From assembly GCA_041937175.2 (NCBI GenBank), contig CP166615.1, positions 3,456,001-3,520,000 of the forward strand: a stretch of 64,000 bases of DNA, in the 5' to 3' direction. The notes under the pieces were generated by a model, which had not been told where the DNA came from, ran no database searches, and saw only the letters and a program-made list of their open reading frames with translations. Position numbers and translations under genes: made by a program. Numbering within the stretch: the stretch's first letter is position 1; each line of letters opens with the position of its first letter. The DNA comes from Limnothrix sp. BL-A-16 (lineage in GTDB: Bacteria; Cyanobacteriota; Cyanobacteriia; CACIAM-69d). Below are positions 1,694 to 63,812 of this stretch, one piece after another.

Positions 1694-2503
1694 CTAATTC
1701 AGGAGTCGGGCGCTGGCGAGGTTTTGCAGGCCCACGGATTCCAACAGGCTTTGCCATTGATCCGGTTGGGTGGTTTGGAGGGCGATGGCCGTGGCCAAGG
1801 TGTCGTACCAGAGGCGTGCTTCTGCCAGGACTTGGGCCCGTTGGAAGGGATCGCGGGCTGCACTGAGGCGGCGATTAACGCTGTCCGGCAGGGCCACGAG
1901 TTTCACTTCCCCGATCGCGGCCACATCGCTGGCTCGATCGCTGGGGTCACAAACAATCGAAAAAGCCCAATTGTAGGTTTTGCCCGTTTGCAGCGCCTTG
2001 CCAGGGCTGAGGAGGGACATTTTTAAAATCCCCGCCTGACCGGTGAGCGGCACGGCTTGGCGATCGACCAAGTTGCCATCTTGGTCGGCCACCACCAGTT
2101 CTGCGGTTTTGACCACCGTGGAGGGCACGTAAACAAATACTGTTGGGTTAGCGCTGGTGGCTTGACCTGACTGGTTTTGTGGCAATAAAAGGGTCAAATT
2201 GGGCCCCGTGGCCGCAATACATTCACCGCCTCGGGTGCCACCGCCAGTGGTGCGGTTGGGGCCGCCCCGATCTTCCGTTTGGGGAAACCGCAGCCCGGAG
2301 CGAGGTGCCCCAAAGCGAGTGCCACCCCCGATCGTGCGGTTGGGGCCGCCTCGGTTTTCGGTGTTGGGGAAGACGGGCCCGGCGATCGAGGCGGCCTGGG
2401 CAGGGGCCAGGGAGAGGGCAATGCCACCGCATAGCAGCATGGCAACTGCGCTCCGAGTCGCCAAGTGGTTCCGAGTGGGCGTTTTTTTCTGAAGGTTGCT
2501 CAT
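1694..2503 (-). CDS. DUF928-domain secreted protein
   Basis: Signal-peptide-like N-terminus (LLCGGIALSLAPAQA), GGGTRG motif, PTVFVYVP, YNWAFSIVCDPSDRASD, LWYDTL, WQSLLESVGL. GGAG RBS before ATG 2503 (alternative start 2545). Adjacent to a CHASE2 gene, as is typical. Confidence 0.85.
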   Translation of the reverse strand: MSNLQKKTPTRNHLATRSAVAMLLCGGIALSLAPAQAASIAGPVFPNTENRGGPNRTIGGGTRFGAPRSGLRFPQTEDRGGPNRTTGGGTRGGECIAATGPNLTLLLPQNQSGQATSANPTVFVYVPSTVVKTAELVVADQDGNLVDRQAVPLTGQAGILKMSLLSPGKALQTGKTYNWAFSIVCDPSDRASDVAAIGEVKLVALPDSVNRRLSAARDPFQRAQVLAEARLWYDTLATAIALQTTQPDQWQSLLESVGLQNLASARLLN

Positions 2504-2756
2504 GACTGGTTCTCCAGCGTGCGTTGCACTGGCTTGCACCTGCATTGCCTGACGGGTTGATTACACCCTGCGATAGGAGTTTTGGACGAGAGAATGGGGG
2601 CCACAAGTTCCAATGCCGGGATAGGCAAGGGCGAGACCAACCGGGAGCCAACGCCCTGAAATGGGCTGACTGCCCTGGATCTCGCCGCTTCTGGGCAATG
2701 GAAATGGAATCTTGAATGGCTGATTCCAATCTTAGCTGGCTGTTTTCAGTTTGCCC

Positions 2757-3749
2757 CTAGCCACCAATCTGGGACATGGTACGGGCGTAGCGTCCGGTGG
2801 TTCCTGATTCGCGATTTTTGAAGTTGATCTCGGGTTTGGCTTGGATCAGTTGGCTAACTTGGGCCCGCAAATCCTGGAGGTCAACGCCCGATCGCAGTTG
2901 GCTTTTAAGGTCGATTTGGCTCGACTCATTCAGCAGACAGGGGCGCAACCAGCCATCGGCCGAAAGGCGCATTCGATTGCAGCGATCACAGAAGCATTCC
3001 GACATTTGGCTAATGAAGCCGATCGTGCCCTTGGCTCCCGGAATTTGGAACACGTCGGCGGGGCCATTGCCGGTGACCCAACCGGTGGTCAGGCCCCAGC
3101 GCGATCGAATCCGTTGTCGCAACTGCTCTGAATCAATCCAACCCCGATCGGCAAACAGATCTTGATTCCCGATCGGCATGAACTCAATGAACCGCACATG
3201 CCACTGGCGATCGAGCGTCAGGGCGGCCAAGGCTTCCACCTCTTGGTCATTGATGCCCGGGATCACCACCACATTCAGCTTCAGCGGATCGAAACCCACC
3301 CGGTGAGCCGCTTGGATGCCATCCCAAACCTGTTGCCAGCGCGATCGCCCCCGATTCCCAATAATCACATCAAAAGTTTCTGGAATCAGGGAATCCAAGC
3401 TGATATTAATCCGTCGTAATCCTGCGTCGTAGAGCGGTTGGGCCAAATCCTTCAGCAGAAAGGCATTGGTGGTGAGGGACAAGTCCAAGGTTTCTGGAAA
3501 CTGCGCGATCGCCTGGGTAATTTCCACCACCCCCGGCCGCAACAGGGGTTCTCCCCCCGTGAGTCGAAAGCGCCGAAACCCTGCCGGCATCAGCACTTCC
3601 CGCAACAACAGCAGCAACTCCCCATCGGTCAGCAAATCCTGTTGCAACGCAAACTGCAAATCTGTTCCCTCGGGCATACAGTACTGGCAGCGGAAGTTGC
3701 AGCGGTCAATCAAACTGATGCGCAGATAATCAATCGTTTCAGCGGCCAT
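2757..3749 (-). CDS. moaA: GTP 3',8-cyclase MoaA (radical SAM)
   Basis: [42 protein letters not shown]-terminal MSQIGG. Start taken at ATG 3749 (track start 3821). Confidence 0.96.
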
Positions 3750-44978: not shown

Positions 44979-45046
44979 CAGGATATCTGGGAAGTAACTT
45001 GGGGGAATGGCAAGGCACAAGTACTCGTGGGGAGTACTCGTAGGGG

Positions 45047-45066
45047 CAAGGGGCTTAAGCCCCTTG
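45047..45066. repeat. REP-like 20-bp palindrome
   Basis: Perfect CAAGGGGCTTAAGCCCCTTG. Confidence 0.9.
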
Positions 45067-45347
45067 TCTGGCAGTGTTGGTGAGGTGATGATTTTCGGTA
45101 ACTGATCGCTTACGCCGCAAAACTTTTACGGACTAATCATGACTGAATTATGGCCCTACCGAAACCTGATTCGTGATCTGTGAAAATGCTCTGCATGATT
45201 CATAAAAACTCCTGAATCATGAGAAATTAATCTCTAGAATACTGACTAAACTTTGATAAAATTGAAGCCTGAAATCAAAAATCTCTTATTAACTGAACAA
45301 TAAAAATGCGTGATAAAAATCAGATTCATTTTTAAATCAAAATTAAC

Positions 45348-53963: not shown

Positions 53964-54356
53964 TTGAAGACTTCTCAGATTGAGCTAACGGAGTCCTACC
54001 CTTGTCCCTGTCGGCAACGGGGCACCCTGCGGCCGATCGCACTCATGGATGCATTTGGTTGCGATCGCTGCCAGCAAATTTTTGTGGTGACCGAATCGGG
54101 TGACCAAATTGAGCAGGTGTCTTCTGGGGCAATCTACCGACGGCTGTGGCGATGGACCGGAACGCGCTGGCTCTCCGTGCGTCCACCCTTGCGTGAAAAT
54201 TATTTGCCCATTACCCTTTGGGCTGGATTTGTCTTGGTGTTGGCTTGGTTGCCCCTGATTGTCAAAGGACTGGCAGGCACGGCGGCTTGGCTGTTGCCGG
54301 GATTGCTGGTGATTGGGCTACCGCTATTGTTGTTATGGCTGGCATACCGGCGCTGA
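53964..54356 (+). CDS. Hypothetical Zn-ribbon membrane protein
   Basis: YPCPC..GTL.PI.L.DAFGCDRCQQIF plus two C-terminal TM segments; TTG start. Confidence 0.75.
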   Translation: MKTSQIELTESYPCPCRQRGTLRPIALMDAFGCDRCQQIFVVTESGDQIEQVSSGAIYRRLWRWTGTRWLSVRPPLRENYLPITLWAGFVLVLAWLPLIVKGLAGTAAWLLPGLLVIGLPLLLLWLAYRR

Positions 54357-54360
54357 GATT

Positions 54361-55626
54361 ATGGTTGGAAATCCCCTGGTTAATTCGGGAGCGCTGGATT
54401 TATTTGGGGCATTGGCGGCGGCGGCCCGAGGGCGATCGGCCCTGGTGGCCATGCGGGGTGGTGAGCGATCGCGGGCGCTGAAGGTGATGGCCAAGGCCTT
54501 GCGAGCCGCCCAAAACGAAATTTTGGAAGCCAACACGCTGGATTTGGAAGCCAGCCGCGAAAAGGCCAGCAGTGGCTTGCCGTCCCTGTGGATTAAGTTC
54601 ACGCCCGATCGACTGCAACAGGTGGCCGATATGCTCGATCGGCTGGCGGATTTGCCCGACCCCACCCGGCAGGCCATTCGCGCCACCCACCAAACTCAAT
54701 ATCTACAAAGCTATTGCCAACTGATGCCCCTGGGGACGATCGCCCTGGTGCATGAAGGCCTGCCGGAGCTGGGGGCGATCGCGGCGGGCATGGGCATCAA
54801 AACCGGCAACAGCATGATTTTGTATGGCAGCAGCGACACCAAACACACCAACGCGGCGATCGCGGCGGCCCTCACCGATGGGCTGACGGCTGGGGAATTG
54901 CCGCCCGAATGTGTCACGGCCATTCCGCCCGATCGGGATATTTCCATGCGCGACCTGCTGGCCCAGGAGCGCTACTTGAACCTGATCGTGGCCTATGGCC
55001 GGCCAAAGCTGGTGCAACAGGCCAGTCAGTTTGCCACCGTGCCCATTCTGGGGGCCGCGATCGGCAATTGTTATCTCTACTGGGCCCTGTCCGGCGAGTT
55101 AGACGTGGTGCGCTGGGCCATTTCCGACAGCCACCAGGGCGATCCGGAAGCGGTGAACGCGATCGAAAAGGTGCTGGTTCACGAGCGCCACAATCGATCG
55201 ATGTTGGGGGTACTCTTTGGCTCCTTGCAAACGGACGGGTTTGAAGTGCGGGTCGATGCCCACCTGCAACAGGATTTTCCCGACTTGCCCTTGGCGGCCG
55301 ATGATGAGTGGAATCGGCCCTATTTAACCAAAACCGTTGCGTTTCGCACGGTGGCCAGCGTGGAAGAGGCGATCGCGGTGATTCACACCCAAAGCAGCGG
55401 CCACGCGGACTGCATCGCCACCGAGTCCTATCGAGAAGCCCACCAATTCGCCTCCCGCCTCGACAGCGCCTCCACCTACATCAATGCTTCACCCCGATTC
55501 CAGCGCAATCCCCGGGGCAGTGCTTCGGTGTTTTTGGGCATGTCGAATCAAAAGGGCTACCGACGCGGGGCGATCGGCCTGGACATGTTAACCACCATCA
55601 AGCAAATTGTCCAAGGGGACGGCTAA
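54361..55626 (+). CDS. proA: Gamma-glutamyl phosphate reductase-like protein (divergent ProA paralogue)
   Basis: ILEANTLDL, PLGTIA, KTGN, SSGHADCI, YINASPRF, GMSNQK..RRG.IGL..LTT.K; the CNA motif reads VNA. Confidence 0.8.
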   Translation: MVGNPLVNSGALDLFGALAAAARGRSALVAMRGGERSRALKVMAKALRAAQNEILEANTLDLEASREKASSGLPSLWIKFTPDRLQQVADMLDRLADLPDPTRQAIRATHQTQYLQSYCQLMPLGTIALVHEGLPELGAIAAGMGIKTGNSMILYGSSDTKHTNAAIAAALTDGLTAGELPPECVTAIPPDRDISMRDLLAQERYLNLIVAYGRPKLVQQASQFATVPILGAAIGNCYLYWALSGELDVVRWAISDSHQGDPEAVNAIEKVLVHERHNRSMLGVLFGSLQTDGFEVRVDAHLQQDFPDLPLAADDEWNRPYLTKTVAFRTVASVEEAIAVIHTQSSGHADCIATESYREAHQFASRLDSASTYINASPRFQRNPRGSASVFLGMSNQKGYRRGAIGLDMLTTIKQIVQGDG

Positions 55627-55753
55627 TTTGGCCTCATTTCCAGGGCTAGTGATCTGTGTAATCAAATTCAATTTTGATCACGGATCTGATGGATTTTTGC
55701 AATATTTGCAATAGTTGATTATCCTCGCCCAATTGCCCCCAACAAGGGGCTTA

Positions 55754-55896
55754 GGGCCTGTCGTCATTATTTCGAGGTGATGCTGAAACAGTTGATCTTC
55801 CATGCCCTAGTCGTCGCAACAAGGGGCTTAAGCCCCTTGTCCCCCACGATCCGCTAACGGCAGATCTAGGGTTTCGTGCTCAACGACAACAGGCCC
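55754..55896. mobile_element. 143-bp MITE, copy 1
   Basis: Terminal inverted repeats GGGCCTGTCGTCATT...AACGACAACAGGCCC, flanked by TA; internal palindrome at 55820. Confidence 0.85.
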
Positions 55897-55898
55897 TA

Positions 55899-56041
55899 GG
55901 GCCTGTCGTCATTATTTCGAGGTGATGCTGAAACAGGTGATCTTCCATGCCCTCGTCGTCGCAACAAGGGGCTTAAGCCCCTTGTCCCCCACGATCCGCT
56001 AACGGCAGATCTAGGGTTTCGTGCTCAACGACGACAGGCCC
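55899..56041. mobile_element. 143-bp MITE, copy 2 (tandem)
   Basis: Three substitutions versus copy 1; TA between the copies and TA after; the flanks rebuild CAAGGGGCT-TA-AGCCCCTTG. Confidence 0.85.
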
Positions 56042-56143
56042 TAAGCCCCTTGTCCCTCGACCTCGCCACGGCAGGATCGGAGCCTTGGGGATTGGATGAC
56101 GGCTTCTTCATCGGTTCAGGCTCCTTTTAATTGATTCCCAACC

Positions 56144-56920
56144 ATGCCGGTAAGCACTCGTAAGTGGGCCGCCAAACAACAGGTGGCGATCGAAATTCTC
56201 GATCGCCTGACACTGCTCTATCCCGATGCCACATGCAGCCTGGACTATGAAACGCCCGTGCAATTGTTGGTGGCGACGATTCTGTCGGCCCAATGCACCG
56301 ATGAGCGGGTAAACAAGGTCACGCCGGCCCTGTTTGGGCGGTTTCCCGACGCGGCGGCCCTGGCCGGGGCCGATCTCGCCGAGCTGGAGGAACTGGTGCG
56401 ATCGACCGGCTTCTATCGCAACAAAGCTAAGAATATCCAGGGCGCTTGCCGAATGATCCTGGAACGATTTGGCGGCAACCTGCCCAAGCGGATGGAGGAA
56501 CTGCTGTTGCTGCCGGGGGTGGCGCGCAAAACGGCGAATGTGGTGTTAGCCCACGCCTTTGGCATCAATGCGGGCGTGACGGTGGACACCCACGTCAAAC
56601 GCCTGGCCTATCGCTTGGGCATGACTGAGCATCAGGATCCGGTGCGGATTGAGCGCGATTTGATGCGGCTGTTGCCCCAACCAGACTGGGAAAATTGGTC
56701 GATTCGGCTGATTTATCACGGGCGGGCCGTTTGCGATGCCCGGAAACCGGCTTGCGATCGCTGCCAGTTGGCGGATCTATGTCCCCAAAAGGGACTGGGC
56801 GCAACGACAACCCAGGCCAAATCCCAATCCCCTGCCCGATCGCCCGGTAAAACCAGCGGCAAATCTAATAACAAAGCCAGTTCCAGCACAGCTAAGGGCA
56901 AAACGCCCCCCAAACCCTAG
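56144..56920 (+). CDS. nth: Endonuclease III
   Basis: LLVATILSAQCTD, LPGVARKTANVV, VDTHV, C-x6-C-x2-C-x5-C; low-complexity tail. Confidence 0.97.
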   Translation: MPVSTRKWAAKQQVAIEILDRLTLLYPDATCSLDYETPVQLLVATILSAQCTDERVNKVTPALFGRFPDAAALAGADLAELEELVRSTGFYRNKAKNIQGACRMILERFGGNLPKRMEELLLLPGVARKTANVVLAHAFGINAGVTVDTHVKRLAYRLGMTEHQDPVRIERDLMRLLPQPDWENWSIRLIYHGRAVCDARKPACDRCQLADLCPQKGLGATTTQAKSQSPARSPGKTSGKSNNKASSSTAKGKTPPKP

Positions 56921-60827: not shown

Positions 60828-60977
60828 GCAACGATCCGCCACTTGCTCCCCAGATCTGACCCAGGCAAGGGGCTTAAGCCCCTTGTCCCCATGAGCCTTG
60901 GTGCAACGATCCGCCACTTACTCCTCAGATCTGACCCAGACAAGGGGCTTAAGCCCCTTGTCCCCGTGAGCCTTGGC
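60828..60977. repeat. Two 75-bp direct repeats, each with the 20-bp palindrome
   Basis: Units begin GCAACGATCCGCC at 60828 and 60903; palindromes at 60866 and 60941. Confidence 0.9.
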
Positions 60978-61010
60978 GCTTGGTCAGTCTCCCAAAATAC
61001 TGATCAGGCA

Positions 61011-61082
61011 TCTGCTAAAACTTCCGCCAAGATCTCAACAAAAACCTCAGCCAAGACTTCAGCAAAAACTTCAGCTAAGACG
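61011..61082. repeat. Degenerate 12-bp tandem repeat, about 6 copies
   Basis: TCAGC(A/C/T)AA(A/G)ACT-like units overlapping the stop of the aldo/keto reductase gene. Confidence 0.7.
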
Positions 61083-62283
61083 ATTGCGAGAGTCGCTTCA
61101 CCGCCCCGCCCGCCAGTAACTGGTGCGCCTCCGTCAGAATATTCAAGACCCGATCGGGATAGGGACTGCGGGCTAAACAGGGGCGCAAATCCAACTCCGA
61201 CAAGCGATCGCCCCGTTGCCCTGGAAACCAGTGGCCCCCATTGCCCAACAGGTTGTAGCGCATTTTGCCATAGGCCACCATGTCAAAGGCCTTCACCAAA
61301 TTCCAAAGCCACACGATCGTCCGCACACTGATTTCGCCCGGCACTTCTTCCGGCTTCGGCAACCCCTGTTCCCAAGTGCGCAGCCAGGCCTTCCCTTCCC
61401 CAGGGCCAAATTCGCGATCAAACGCCTCGATCGCCGCTTGCTCCAACCGTCGCGTAATCATGGGCAGCAACTGGCCCGGTTGATCCAAAAAGGACAGGGT
61501 TTTCAGATGCTCATCAAAATCGCTAGGCCGAGCGGCCCCCAGGCTCAGGGTATGCACCTGCGGATGGCTTAAACAAAACAAATTGTTAAACACCATCGGA
61601 CTCAGGGGCTTGCAGAGTTCCACCAATTTGGGCGATGGCTCGTAGAGCAGCCCCCCCTTATTGGCTGGACTGATAATAAACACGCCCATATCCAACTGGG
61701 TGGCCGCCTCGATCGCCCGCCAGTTGGTTTGGTTGATGTAATACCAATGCAAATTGACGTAATCAAATTGGTTGGACTGAATCGTCTCCATGATTACGTC
61801 CAAGGGCCCGTGGGTGGAAAATCCAATGAACCGCACTCGCCCCTCCGCCTGCCAGCGTCTGGCCCGATCGAGGCAGCCCCCCGGCCGCAACGTCCAGTCC
61901 AAATGCTCGCGGGTGTTAATCCCGTGAATGCCCAGCAAGTCCACATAGTCGAGCTTGAGGTAGCCCATGGACTGCTCAAAGTCCCGCTCAAAGTCGGCCA
62001 CCTGGGCAGTAGGCCCCACCTTCGTTTGCACAATCAAATCCTGACGGGGATATTGCGGCAGCACCCAACCCAGTTGCATCTCGGAGCTGCCATAGCCCCT
62101 GGCCGTCTCAATGTGGTTAATGCCCACAGCAAGGGCCCGCTCGATCGTGGCGGCCAAATTGGCTTGGCCCGCCGCGTCAATTTGTGTGGGTGAGAGGTCT
62201 TGCCAGGCCTGCTGGTAGCGCATTCCACCACAGGAAAACACCGGCATTGATAGCTCTGTGCGCCCAAACCGTCGATAAAGCAT
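61075..62283 (-). CDS. Aldo/keto reductase family protein
   Basis: MLYRRFGRTEL, GINHIETARGYGSSE, QTKV, IGFSTHG, DYVNLHWY. Confidence 0.92.
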   Translation of the reverse strand: MLYRRFGRTELSMPVFSCGGMRYQQAWQDLSPTQIDAAGQANLAATIERALAVGINHIETARGYGSSEMQLGWVLPQYPRQDLIVQTKVGPTAQVADFERDFEQSMGYLKLDYVDLLGIHGINTREHLDWTLRPGGCLDRARRWQAEGRVRFIGFSTHGPLDVIMETIQSNQFDYVNLHWYYINQTNWRAIEAATQLDMGVFIISPANKGGLLYEPSPKLVELCKPLSPMVFNNLFCLSHPQVHTLSLGAARPSDFDEHLKTLSFLDQPGQLLPMITRRLEQAAIEAFDREFGPGEGKAWLRTWEQGLPKPEEVPGEISVRTIVWLWNLVKAFDMVAYGKMRYNLLGNGGHWFPGQRGDRLSELDLRPCLARSPYPDRVLNILTEAHQLLAGGAVKRLSQSS

Positions 62284-63568: not shown

Positions 63569-63812
63569 GGTTTGTGGCTCAATCGCCTGCAACCCTGATT
63601 CCGCCGTGACGAAATCGTGAGGGGCAAGGGGCTTAGGGCTTGTCGTCAAATCGCTTGAAACCCTGATTCCGCCGTTGGCAGATCTTGGGGGGCAAGGGGC
63701 TTAGAATGTGTCGTCAAATCGCCTGAAACCCTGATTTCGCCGTAACGAAATCGTGGGGGACAAGGGGCTTGAGCATCTTGTCTAGGGTGGTTGGCGTAAT
63801 GACGACAGGCCC
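63568..63812. mobile_element. Nested, degenerate array of the same MITE family (opposite orientation)
   Basis: Three 68-bp units (63568, 63636, 63704), each preceded by TA and running to the palindrome centre; one distal end TAATGACGACAGGCCC is the reverse complement of 55754-55769. Confidence 0.8.

Follow-up and report, generated by a model that had tools for sequence, protein, structure and literature searches.

The two 143-bp elements that stand in tandem between two genes of the genome analysed here are, in the explanation that we regard as the best and as probably correct, MITEs with IS427-type ends and a preference for TA, whose internal RAYT-type palindrome is a cargo of three MITE families. 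The parts are known (REP-targeting IS, MITE and RAYT-type palindrome); their combination, in which a palindrome spreads as a MITE cargo and in turn supplies MITE landing sites, is one that we did not find described.

The window, a stretch of 64 kb, corresponds to C1:3456001-3520000 of the complete 4.56-Mb genome under study (G000). Between a gene that we take to be proA-like and one that is presumably endonuclease III (nth)-like, a 20-bp palindrome, CAAGGGGCTTAAGCCCCTTG, is represented by one half on each side of the tandem and by one intact copy inside each 143-bp element (Table 1). The original prediction, made from the sequence alone, had described this two-copy layout with exact coordinates, including the TA before, between and after the copies and the intact palindrome in each. 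It had also proposed terminal inverted repeats of about 15 bp, and these match at 14 of 15 positions in copy 2 and at 13 of 15 in copy 1, with a 12-bp core, GGGCCTGTCGTC. The copies differ at three of 143 positions (39, 56 and 135) and code for nothing, there being no ORF of 80 or more amino acids inside them. Copy 1 is one nucleotide away from another member of its family at C1:3331424, relative to which the two copies have no derived change in common. The window contains 10 matches to the palindrome with at most two mismatches; none of 100 shuffles contains any. A promoter scan at the locus returned no hit and a terminator scan one, both at the level of shuffled sequence.

Table 1. Coordinates of the repeat locus, its neighbouring genes and related remnants in the window
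Feature	Position	Strand	Basis or remark
Upstream gene, 437-aa ORF, presumably proA-like	54313..55626	+	
Left host-element remnant	55707..55753	+	possibly an old family-A copy (weak)
Left half of split 20-bp palindrome, CAAGGGGCT	55743..55751	+	sequence
TA, target duplication 1	55752..55753		sequence; family-wide TA; empty sites
MITE family A, copy 1	55754..55896	+	143-bp young subfamily
Palindrome inside copy 1	55820..55839		centre 76/67 nt from ends
TA between copies	55897..55898		sequence; target matrix
MITE family A, copy 2	55899..56041	+	two private substitutions
Palindrome inside copy 2	55965..55984		palindrome scan
TA, target duplication 3	56042..56043		sequence
Right half of split palindrome, AGCCCCTTG	56044..56052	+	sequence
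Right host-element remnant	56044..56110	+	weakly like family-A right arm
Downstream gene, 258-aa ORF, presumably nth-like	56144..56920	+	
Partial family-B MITE bearing the same palindrome	44980..45069	+	
Two family-B remnants	60849..61012	-	palindromes at 60866 and 60941
Family-A remnants	63569..63801	-	partial copy, then two 68-bp right halves

The sequence to the right of the tandem had been read as an older degenerate copy of the same element, a reading that survives in part. The right flank aligns with the family better than 495 of 500 shuffles, and the left flank together with the palindrome reaches 77% identity to the element across 60 nt. When the palindrome is left out, each flank still aligns to the family model where it should and on the expected strand, though at just 2.7 and 1.8 bits, and in global alignment 461 of 500 shuffles were as good as the left flank. 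On these comparisons an older degenerate family-A copy is a weak but plausible candidate for the host element at the locus. A 9-bp duplication in the left flank (55693-55710) is absent from four public runs of close strains. Elsewhere in the window, an ORF at 60843-61331 reads the palindrome twice as KGLKPLV and contains SAKT repeats; it overlaps the family-B remnants and a gene on the opposite strand and is probably spurious.

Profile searches of G000 recovered 116 full-length copies of the element (family A), mostly of 142-143 bp. The proposed duplication of TA is borne out, since TA stands on both sides of 75 copies (on the left of 90 and on the right of 96) and single TAs are found at empty sites; the 41 copies that have no clean TA on one or both sides are old or mis-bounded. 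The internal palindrome is present in 115 of the 116 model-defined copies, partly by construction, and is exact in 69, with its centre near the middle of the element (75/67). The junction formed by a split palindrome and a family-A end was matched by 66 stretches, 63 of them in Limnothrix redekei and two cyanobacterial MAGs. The rest include Psychrobacter (L043, L044 and L089), where an element some 200 bp long, which has GGGCGTGTCATCA ends and a TA duplication, occupies one shared site; these matches, a similar-ended element beside an unrelated imperfect palindrome, were set aside.

Comparison with a congener (G002) covered 800 kb of its approximately 4.5 Mb, which includes both flanks of 37 of the 268 A, B and C elements (families B and C are described below). 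The counterpart of the family-A copy at C1:3646614 is an intact single palindrome with one TA, so that the empty single-palindrome allele, which had been expected between proA and nth, was found at another locus. Ten further family-A sites were testable: there is a single TA at 2030693 and 1842255 and TG at 1835333, and the remaining sites are empty or altered, too diverged to be read to the base; two keep host remnants. In the opposite direction, one of four G002 family-A copies leads to a G000 site with a single TA. Precisely empty counterparts were seen for eight of 22 testable family-B sites (four shared) and for three of four family-C sites (one shared), and at C1:3331424 G002 has neither the B host nor the A copy nested in it. 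Since sites filled in G000 are empty and devoid of the palindrome in G002, MITE jumps bring palindromes to sites that lacked them, as the original prediction had proposed. At the locus itself G002 has 14 bp between proA and nth in place of the 480 bp (55634-56113) of G000, host element included, and no single-palindrome allele was seen there; in G001 synteny is broken and the two genes lie on different contigs with other neighbours. In four public runs of close strains the flanking contigs run into element ends, and the site seems filled, with one copy or two. Family A therefore has the attributes of a MITE: it is short and non-coding, with terminal inverted repeats, a target-site duplication with empty alleles, dispersed copies and ends in common with an IS.

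The empty sites also settle where the element begins and ends. If the true unit were permuted, running from AGCCCCTTG to CAAGGGGCT, the palindrome would be a mere end-to-end junction, which could account for the 68-bp right halves of family A that occur in tandem arrays. The empty sites, however, place the ends at GGGCC/GGCCC, 55 of the 116 copies end at these motifs beside unrelated DNA, and the palindrome stands alone in other genomes; the permuted unit is refuted, and we give it practically no credence.

A non-autonomous element had been predicted, with a partner of the IS5 (IS427 group) or IS630 type recognisable by a transposase gene between the same ends. Such a gene was found in a relative (G003), where locus L034 contains an 862-bp element (959-1820) with ends GGGGGTGTCGTCA and GGGGCTGTCGTCA, a TA duplication and two ORFs of 129 and 164 amino acids that overlap at a run of A; these ends match those of the gene-less family-A copies. 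The L034 proteins score 139.7 and 136.6 bits against NF033580 (cut-off 110) and also match PF13340 and PF01609. To our knowledge, NF033580 alone does not separate the groups of the IS5 family. The L034 element is itself inserted in the palindrome of an A-like MITE, which it splits, and contains no palindrome of its own. In the tabulation of PMC3281130 the IS427 group of the IS5 family (e.g. IS1248, ISPpa2) comprises elements of 832-865 bp with 12-21-bp inverted repeats, mostly 2-bp direct repeats and two overlapping ORFs with a frameshift motif, and L034 agrees with the tabulated size, ORF arrangement and 2-bp repeat, and there is a MITE with its ends. Unlike that group, the elements of the window are gene-less, and the preference for a REP-type palindrome and for YTAR (not CTAG) is specific to the lineage. 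Among the transposases found between A-type ends all were of the IS5 family and none of the IS630 type, which leaves the first of the two predicted partners.

In G000 itself a truncated 5' remnant of the IS is kept, in a half palindrome at C1:1150891, and no A-ended pairs of 400-2600 bp with TA were found. Homologues are present at 80 metagenome loci, of which 36 are complete elements of 830-892 bp that agree in end motif and TA; they insert at CTAG in 90% of cases, with G at -4, and the palindrome is present at 0 of the 80 loci. Because G000, G001 and G002 yielded no intact transposase gene with A-type ends, the choice of a mobilising enzyme is based solely on matching ends, and family A is likely to be moved in trans by an IS427-type transposase. 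The IS5-like genes of G000, an intact one at C1:3867261 and those of multicopy elements, were rejected as partners, having other ends.

The proposal that family A targets the centre of the palindrome was confirmed as a strong tendency and not as an obligate rule. Both palindrome halves flank 28 of the 116 copies, against 1.3 expected for random insertion among 35,080 YTAR sites with 391 intact palindrome-like sites, the copies being not fully independent. The right half only is present in 20 copies, the left only in 4, a half and a neighbouring element end in 5, an element end only in 4, and the 55 others touch no half, a distribution that differs from obligate REP targeting (type 1 of PMC1525189). 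At 36 clean non-palindrome targets there is a symmetric bias, with G at -5 to -3, C at -2 and Y at -1. A matrix derived from 32 sites with at least 10 mismatches to the palindrome, at widths of 4-6 bases, assigns 15-20% of its weight to the palindrome (bootstrap 8-31%), compared to 0.33% when flat, and much of the strict share of 24% is therefore accounted for by sequence preference. Of the youngest 29 copies, 15 touch a palindrome half, which exceeds the matrix prediction, so that sequence preference may not be the whole story. As a selected function, the intergenic safe harbour of the original prediction is at most hypothetical.

Could the excess instead reflect survival, with near-random insertion at YTAR, purging of genic copies and a pile-up in intergenic repeats? 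Purging is compatible with the finding that just two of the 116 copies have both flanks in frames of 250 or more codons, which cover 71% of the chromosome. Yet family B is filtered alike (7 of 121 copies in long frames) and is found in no palindrome, although the centre offers TTA/TAA; limiting the targets to the 29% of DNA outside long frames would shift the expectation about 3-fold, against a 20-fold excess; and the non-palindrome targets resemble the palindrome core. As a sole cause survivor bias is thus largely refuted, and we hold it to be very improbable.

Under the same target matrix, the TA junctions between two element ends (including 55897..55898) and between an end and a palindrome half rank among the best 0.5% of TA sites, and there are tandems in which the subfamilies differ, as with A beside subfamily A2 (see below) at C1:4526906/4527048. 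On both grounds a second insertion at the junction TA is the likeliest origin of the tandem at the locus; an early duplication is also compatible.

Clustering of the arms of 424 palindromes yielded three families with unrelated ends. Family B (121 copies, 131 bp, GAGGATGTCTGAAAAG ends) targets TNA, with a 3-bp duplication identical in 81 of the 121, and an IS5-family element with related ends occurs in G013; family C (31 copies) duplicates TA within CTAG. The exact palindrome is found in 66 of the B and 12 of the C copies, near the middle in both families (65/66 and 66/80, respectively), and end pairs devoid of it are few: 11 of 138 for A, 3 of 120 for B and 1 of 17 for C. Nine of the 11 palindrome-less A rows (8 elements) represent a 190-bp subfamily, A2, with an inverted pair of GTAG-type REPs instead, and several A2 copies lie in the palindrome or beside A copies. 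A palindrome variant that has no central TA has spread in family C. Chimeric arms (A/B and A/C) and the 68-bp half elements are laid out as they would be if nesting had been followed by deletion between the repeated palindrome halves. The REPIN-like A2 elements with family-A ends are at C1:214601, 725206, 1215564 and 1350922, with further copies at 1896934, 1980991, 2999887 and 4527048. We also noted a young multicopy IS, roughly 900 bp long, that has AGACCTCTTGCAC ends and 3-bp duplications (C1:280937, 1738963, 2481814, 2693487, 3693781, 1589629, 2766082 and 3232813), one copy of which interrupts a family-C MITE.

These carriers bear on the original idea of a self-targeting element, dedicated to carrying its target, with the result that MITE and palindrome would be amplified jointly, as a coupled system. 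Family A does carry the palindrome and also hits it, and matches to the split-palindrome junction are limited to the Limnothrix lineage, 63 of the 66 stretches lying in three cyanobacterial genomes; moreover, relatives elsewhere use CTAG (C at -1 in 90%), whereas family A takes T at -1 in 40% of its non-palindrome sites, which could reflect adaptation to the palindrome. Carrying and targeting are nevertheless uncoupled, because families B and C carry the palindrome, yet 0 of 121 and 0 of 31 copies sit in one. The 28 palindrome-splitting A copies have B elements as hosts in 12 cases, A elements in 8, free palindromes in 7 and a C element in one, close to the supply of intact sites (126, 155, 91 and 19, respectively), so that insertions of A in A are not in excess of those of A in B. 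In addition, A2, with the same ends, lands in the palindrome while carrying different REPs, and the variant that spread in family C has lost the central TA. Intact palindromes are MITE-borne in 300 of 391 cases (77%), and family A thus exploits a common pool rather than its own copies. Self-specific coupling, as originally proposed, does not hold up against these counts, and we judge a dedicated system to be unlikely.

The preferred explanation, a palindrome carried by three MITE families and exploited by one, can be phrased as a cycle. A transposase that prefers TA within a palindromic G-G-G-C-Y / R-G-C-C-C context would find in the 20-bp palindrome the best match in the genome. Every jump of A, B or C would plant another palindrome in mostly intergenic DNA, and family A and its IS would land in the planted palindromes, whichever element had brought them. 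Each landing would leave TA junctions that stay good targets, giving rise to tandems, and recombination of host half-palindromes with the internal palindrome would trim the nested copies to 68-bp halves and to A/B and A/C chimeras. The palindrome would then be maintained by DDE-driven MITE amplification and not by a RAYT of its own; our preferred guess is that it first entered MITEs through RAYT-mediated insertion into IS ends or young MITEs at a time when the genome still had a RAYT.

Short inverted-repeat elements that contain the palindrome are not limited to G000. They account for 15 of 15 loci in G042 (two end types), 7 of 7 in G210 and 2 of 7 in G272, in tallies read by eye from small samples that were first listed and not random, and were seen at some loci of G187, G294 and G017. 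Carriage by MITEs is not universal, since the palindrome is free-standing at all seven loci in G217 (0 of 7 in such elements) and at five of seven in G272. Across other families it recurs inside at least five further end types. This recurrence, together with the near-middle position in A, B and C, would be expected if the internal palindrome were functional for the MITEs, as a hairpin, cruciform or protein-binding site that brings the two ends together by bending an element of 95-146 bp, or as an RNA hairpin favoured by the host, with the role as a target being a side effect. The element forms a more stable fold than any of 200 shuffles (copy 2, z = -4.0 as DNA and -5.0 as RNA), and among the 37 variants with two mismatches 10 share one symmetric sequence that is still a perfect palindrome. 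These ten are, on the other hand, a single sequence and may go back to a small number of events, the same pattern could result from founder effects, the exact palindrome persists in just the 69 A, 66 B and 12 C copies noted above, and an Rfam search of the element returned no match at E up to 1. A functional core is possible though doubtful; it is compatible with the preferred explanation and does not exclude it.

Several described systems resemble parts of this arrangement. REP-targeting ISs include IS1397, ISKpn1, IS621, ISPpu9/10, ISRm22 and the IS5-family ISNm1106 (PMC1525189, PMC3184786), as well as IS1594 in Anabaena (PMC3184786). Family A likewise inserts at a fixed point of a REP-type palindrome, and its partial association recalls that of ISNm1106, given as 'type 2' (4/7, 7/14) in PMC1525189. 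Those ISs are autonomous, and carriage of the target is not reported in the accounts consulted, whereas family A is non-autonomous, carries its target and is supplied with targets by other MITEs. Nezha, MaeMITE and the Anabaena MITEs are described as 130-200-bp elements with TIRs, a TSD, strong folding, empty and filled sites in relatives and a partner IS in another species only (PMC3184786, PMC3542288), features that recur in family A: a TIR element with a TSD, a strong fold, empty sites and a partner IS in other species. A common REP cargo and a nesting hierarchy distinguish the elements studied here from described cyanobacterial MITEs, in a comparison by description only in which family B or others may overlap with them. 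The closest precedent for REP-cored elements and for A2 comes from Anabaena variabilis, where GTAG-15 REP dimers lie inside long TATAGG...CCTATA palindromes, were never seen outside them and are noted as REPs inserted into target palindromes (PMC3733652). There, too, a REP is found inside a longer inverted-repeat element; the REP is a different one, however, and the portion of that account consulted notes no MITE cargo, IS partner, empty sites or re-targeting. Our literature search yielded no description of a MITE that contains the REP it targets or of unrelated MITEs that have one REP as a common cargo, with overlap with Nezha, Microcystis MITEs and small dispersed repeats being possible, and no mention of the motif GGGGCTTAAGCCCC in the literature searched.

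With 326 exact copies, G000 has the highest palindrome count among 301 sampled genomes of the class; exact copies occur in 59 of these, from 30 of 144 genera, and a reversed control in none. Of the 91 free palindromes in G000, 12 lie in long frames, which cover 71% of the chromosome. A link to RAYT-like proteins emerges in other genomes. In G042 a Type ISP C-terminal ORF includes an in-frame Y1 domain that lies between three palindrome copies, and close homologues (73-83%) in four further genomes are found in the same kind of ORF with 4-5 palindromes around, so that all five of 301 genomes with a close homologue have it bracketed by 3-5 palindromes; none of 17 weaker Y1 loci has the palindrome around. 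Within the Type ISP proteins the palindrome is read as KGLKPLV/RGLSPL, and variant peptides, KGLPPLV and NGLKPVV among them, flank distant Y1 homologues. The best model for the homologues is NF047646, at 54-62 bits compared to a cut-off of 80, and several are named RayT by JGI. A GTAG tag before the stem is conserved neither in 387 G000 copies nor beside the Y1 genes, only the different REPs of A2 having GTAG. Since the scores are under the RAYT cut-off and the tag is missing, we use the terms RAYT-like and REP-type; judged by this genomic context, the palindrome is likely to be the REP of a putative RAYT-like HUH transposase.

With the same query, no close Y1 homologue was found in 54 of the 59 palindrome-positive genomes, G000 included, nor in any of G000-G003; the largest palindrome population of the 301 genomes is thus in a complete genome where a matching RAYT was not found. 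The Y1 gene at C1:1721528 in G000 was rejected as a partner, with no palindrome within 1.5 kb, as was a second at C1:4319933, which is flanked by other, GTAG-type REPs. The latter region (C1:4319700-4320600) and locus L124 of G001 contain classical RAYT-like genes with flanking GTAG-type REPs that are unrelated to the palindrome studied here. REP insertions within tnpA-REP genes are known (subclass 2.4, PMC6006769), and REP/REPIN populations are described as decaying once the RAYT is lost (bioRxiv 10.1101/2021.07.10.451892). As in RAYT/TnpA-REP REPtrons, a Y1 HUH gene is bracketed here by several copies of a short palindrome. In contrast to REPtrons, the palindrome is a perfect one of 20 bp, with no GTAG, and the Y1 domain is in frame inside a Type ISP C-terminal ORF; in contrast to REPINs, a large population is present where no RAYT was found.

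Amplification as MITE cargo would represent a second, testable route of REP proliferation and would join two classes of small repeats that are usually handled apart. We offer only tentatively the broader reading that cyanobacterial MITEs draw generally on RAYT-type palindromes as raw material, having repeatedly captured them between the ends of unrelated DDE ISs (at least eight end types); the palindromes may help to create or mobilise these very short elements and may thereby persist and multiply once their own RAYT is lost, one IS427-type lineage having perhaps shifted its target preference to exploit them. The locus also points to a small and well-defined IS5-family system whose preferred target is a palindrome of 10-12 bp.

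Also of interest is a RAYT-like domain that forms an in-frame part of Type ISP restriction-modification proteins. Loci L140-L144 (e.g. L132, 772-2679, minus strand) have such a Y1 domain in Type ISP C-terminal ORFs, bracketed by in-frame palindromes, and in L108 and L144 a lone palindrome is located at another point of the same kind of gene. Downstream of the Y1 gene of locus L001 in G000, a unit of about 500 bp is repeated in tandem at least twice (2100-3342, corresponding to C1 ~1722130-1723369), and the ORFs upstream of that gene, on the other strand, are presumably cyanobactin biosynthesis-like (protease, prenyltransferase-like).
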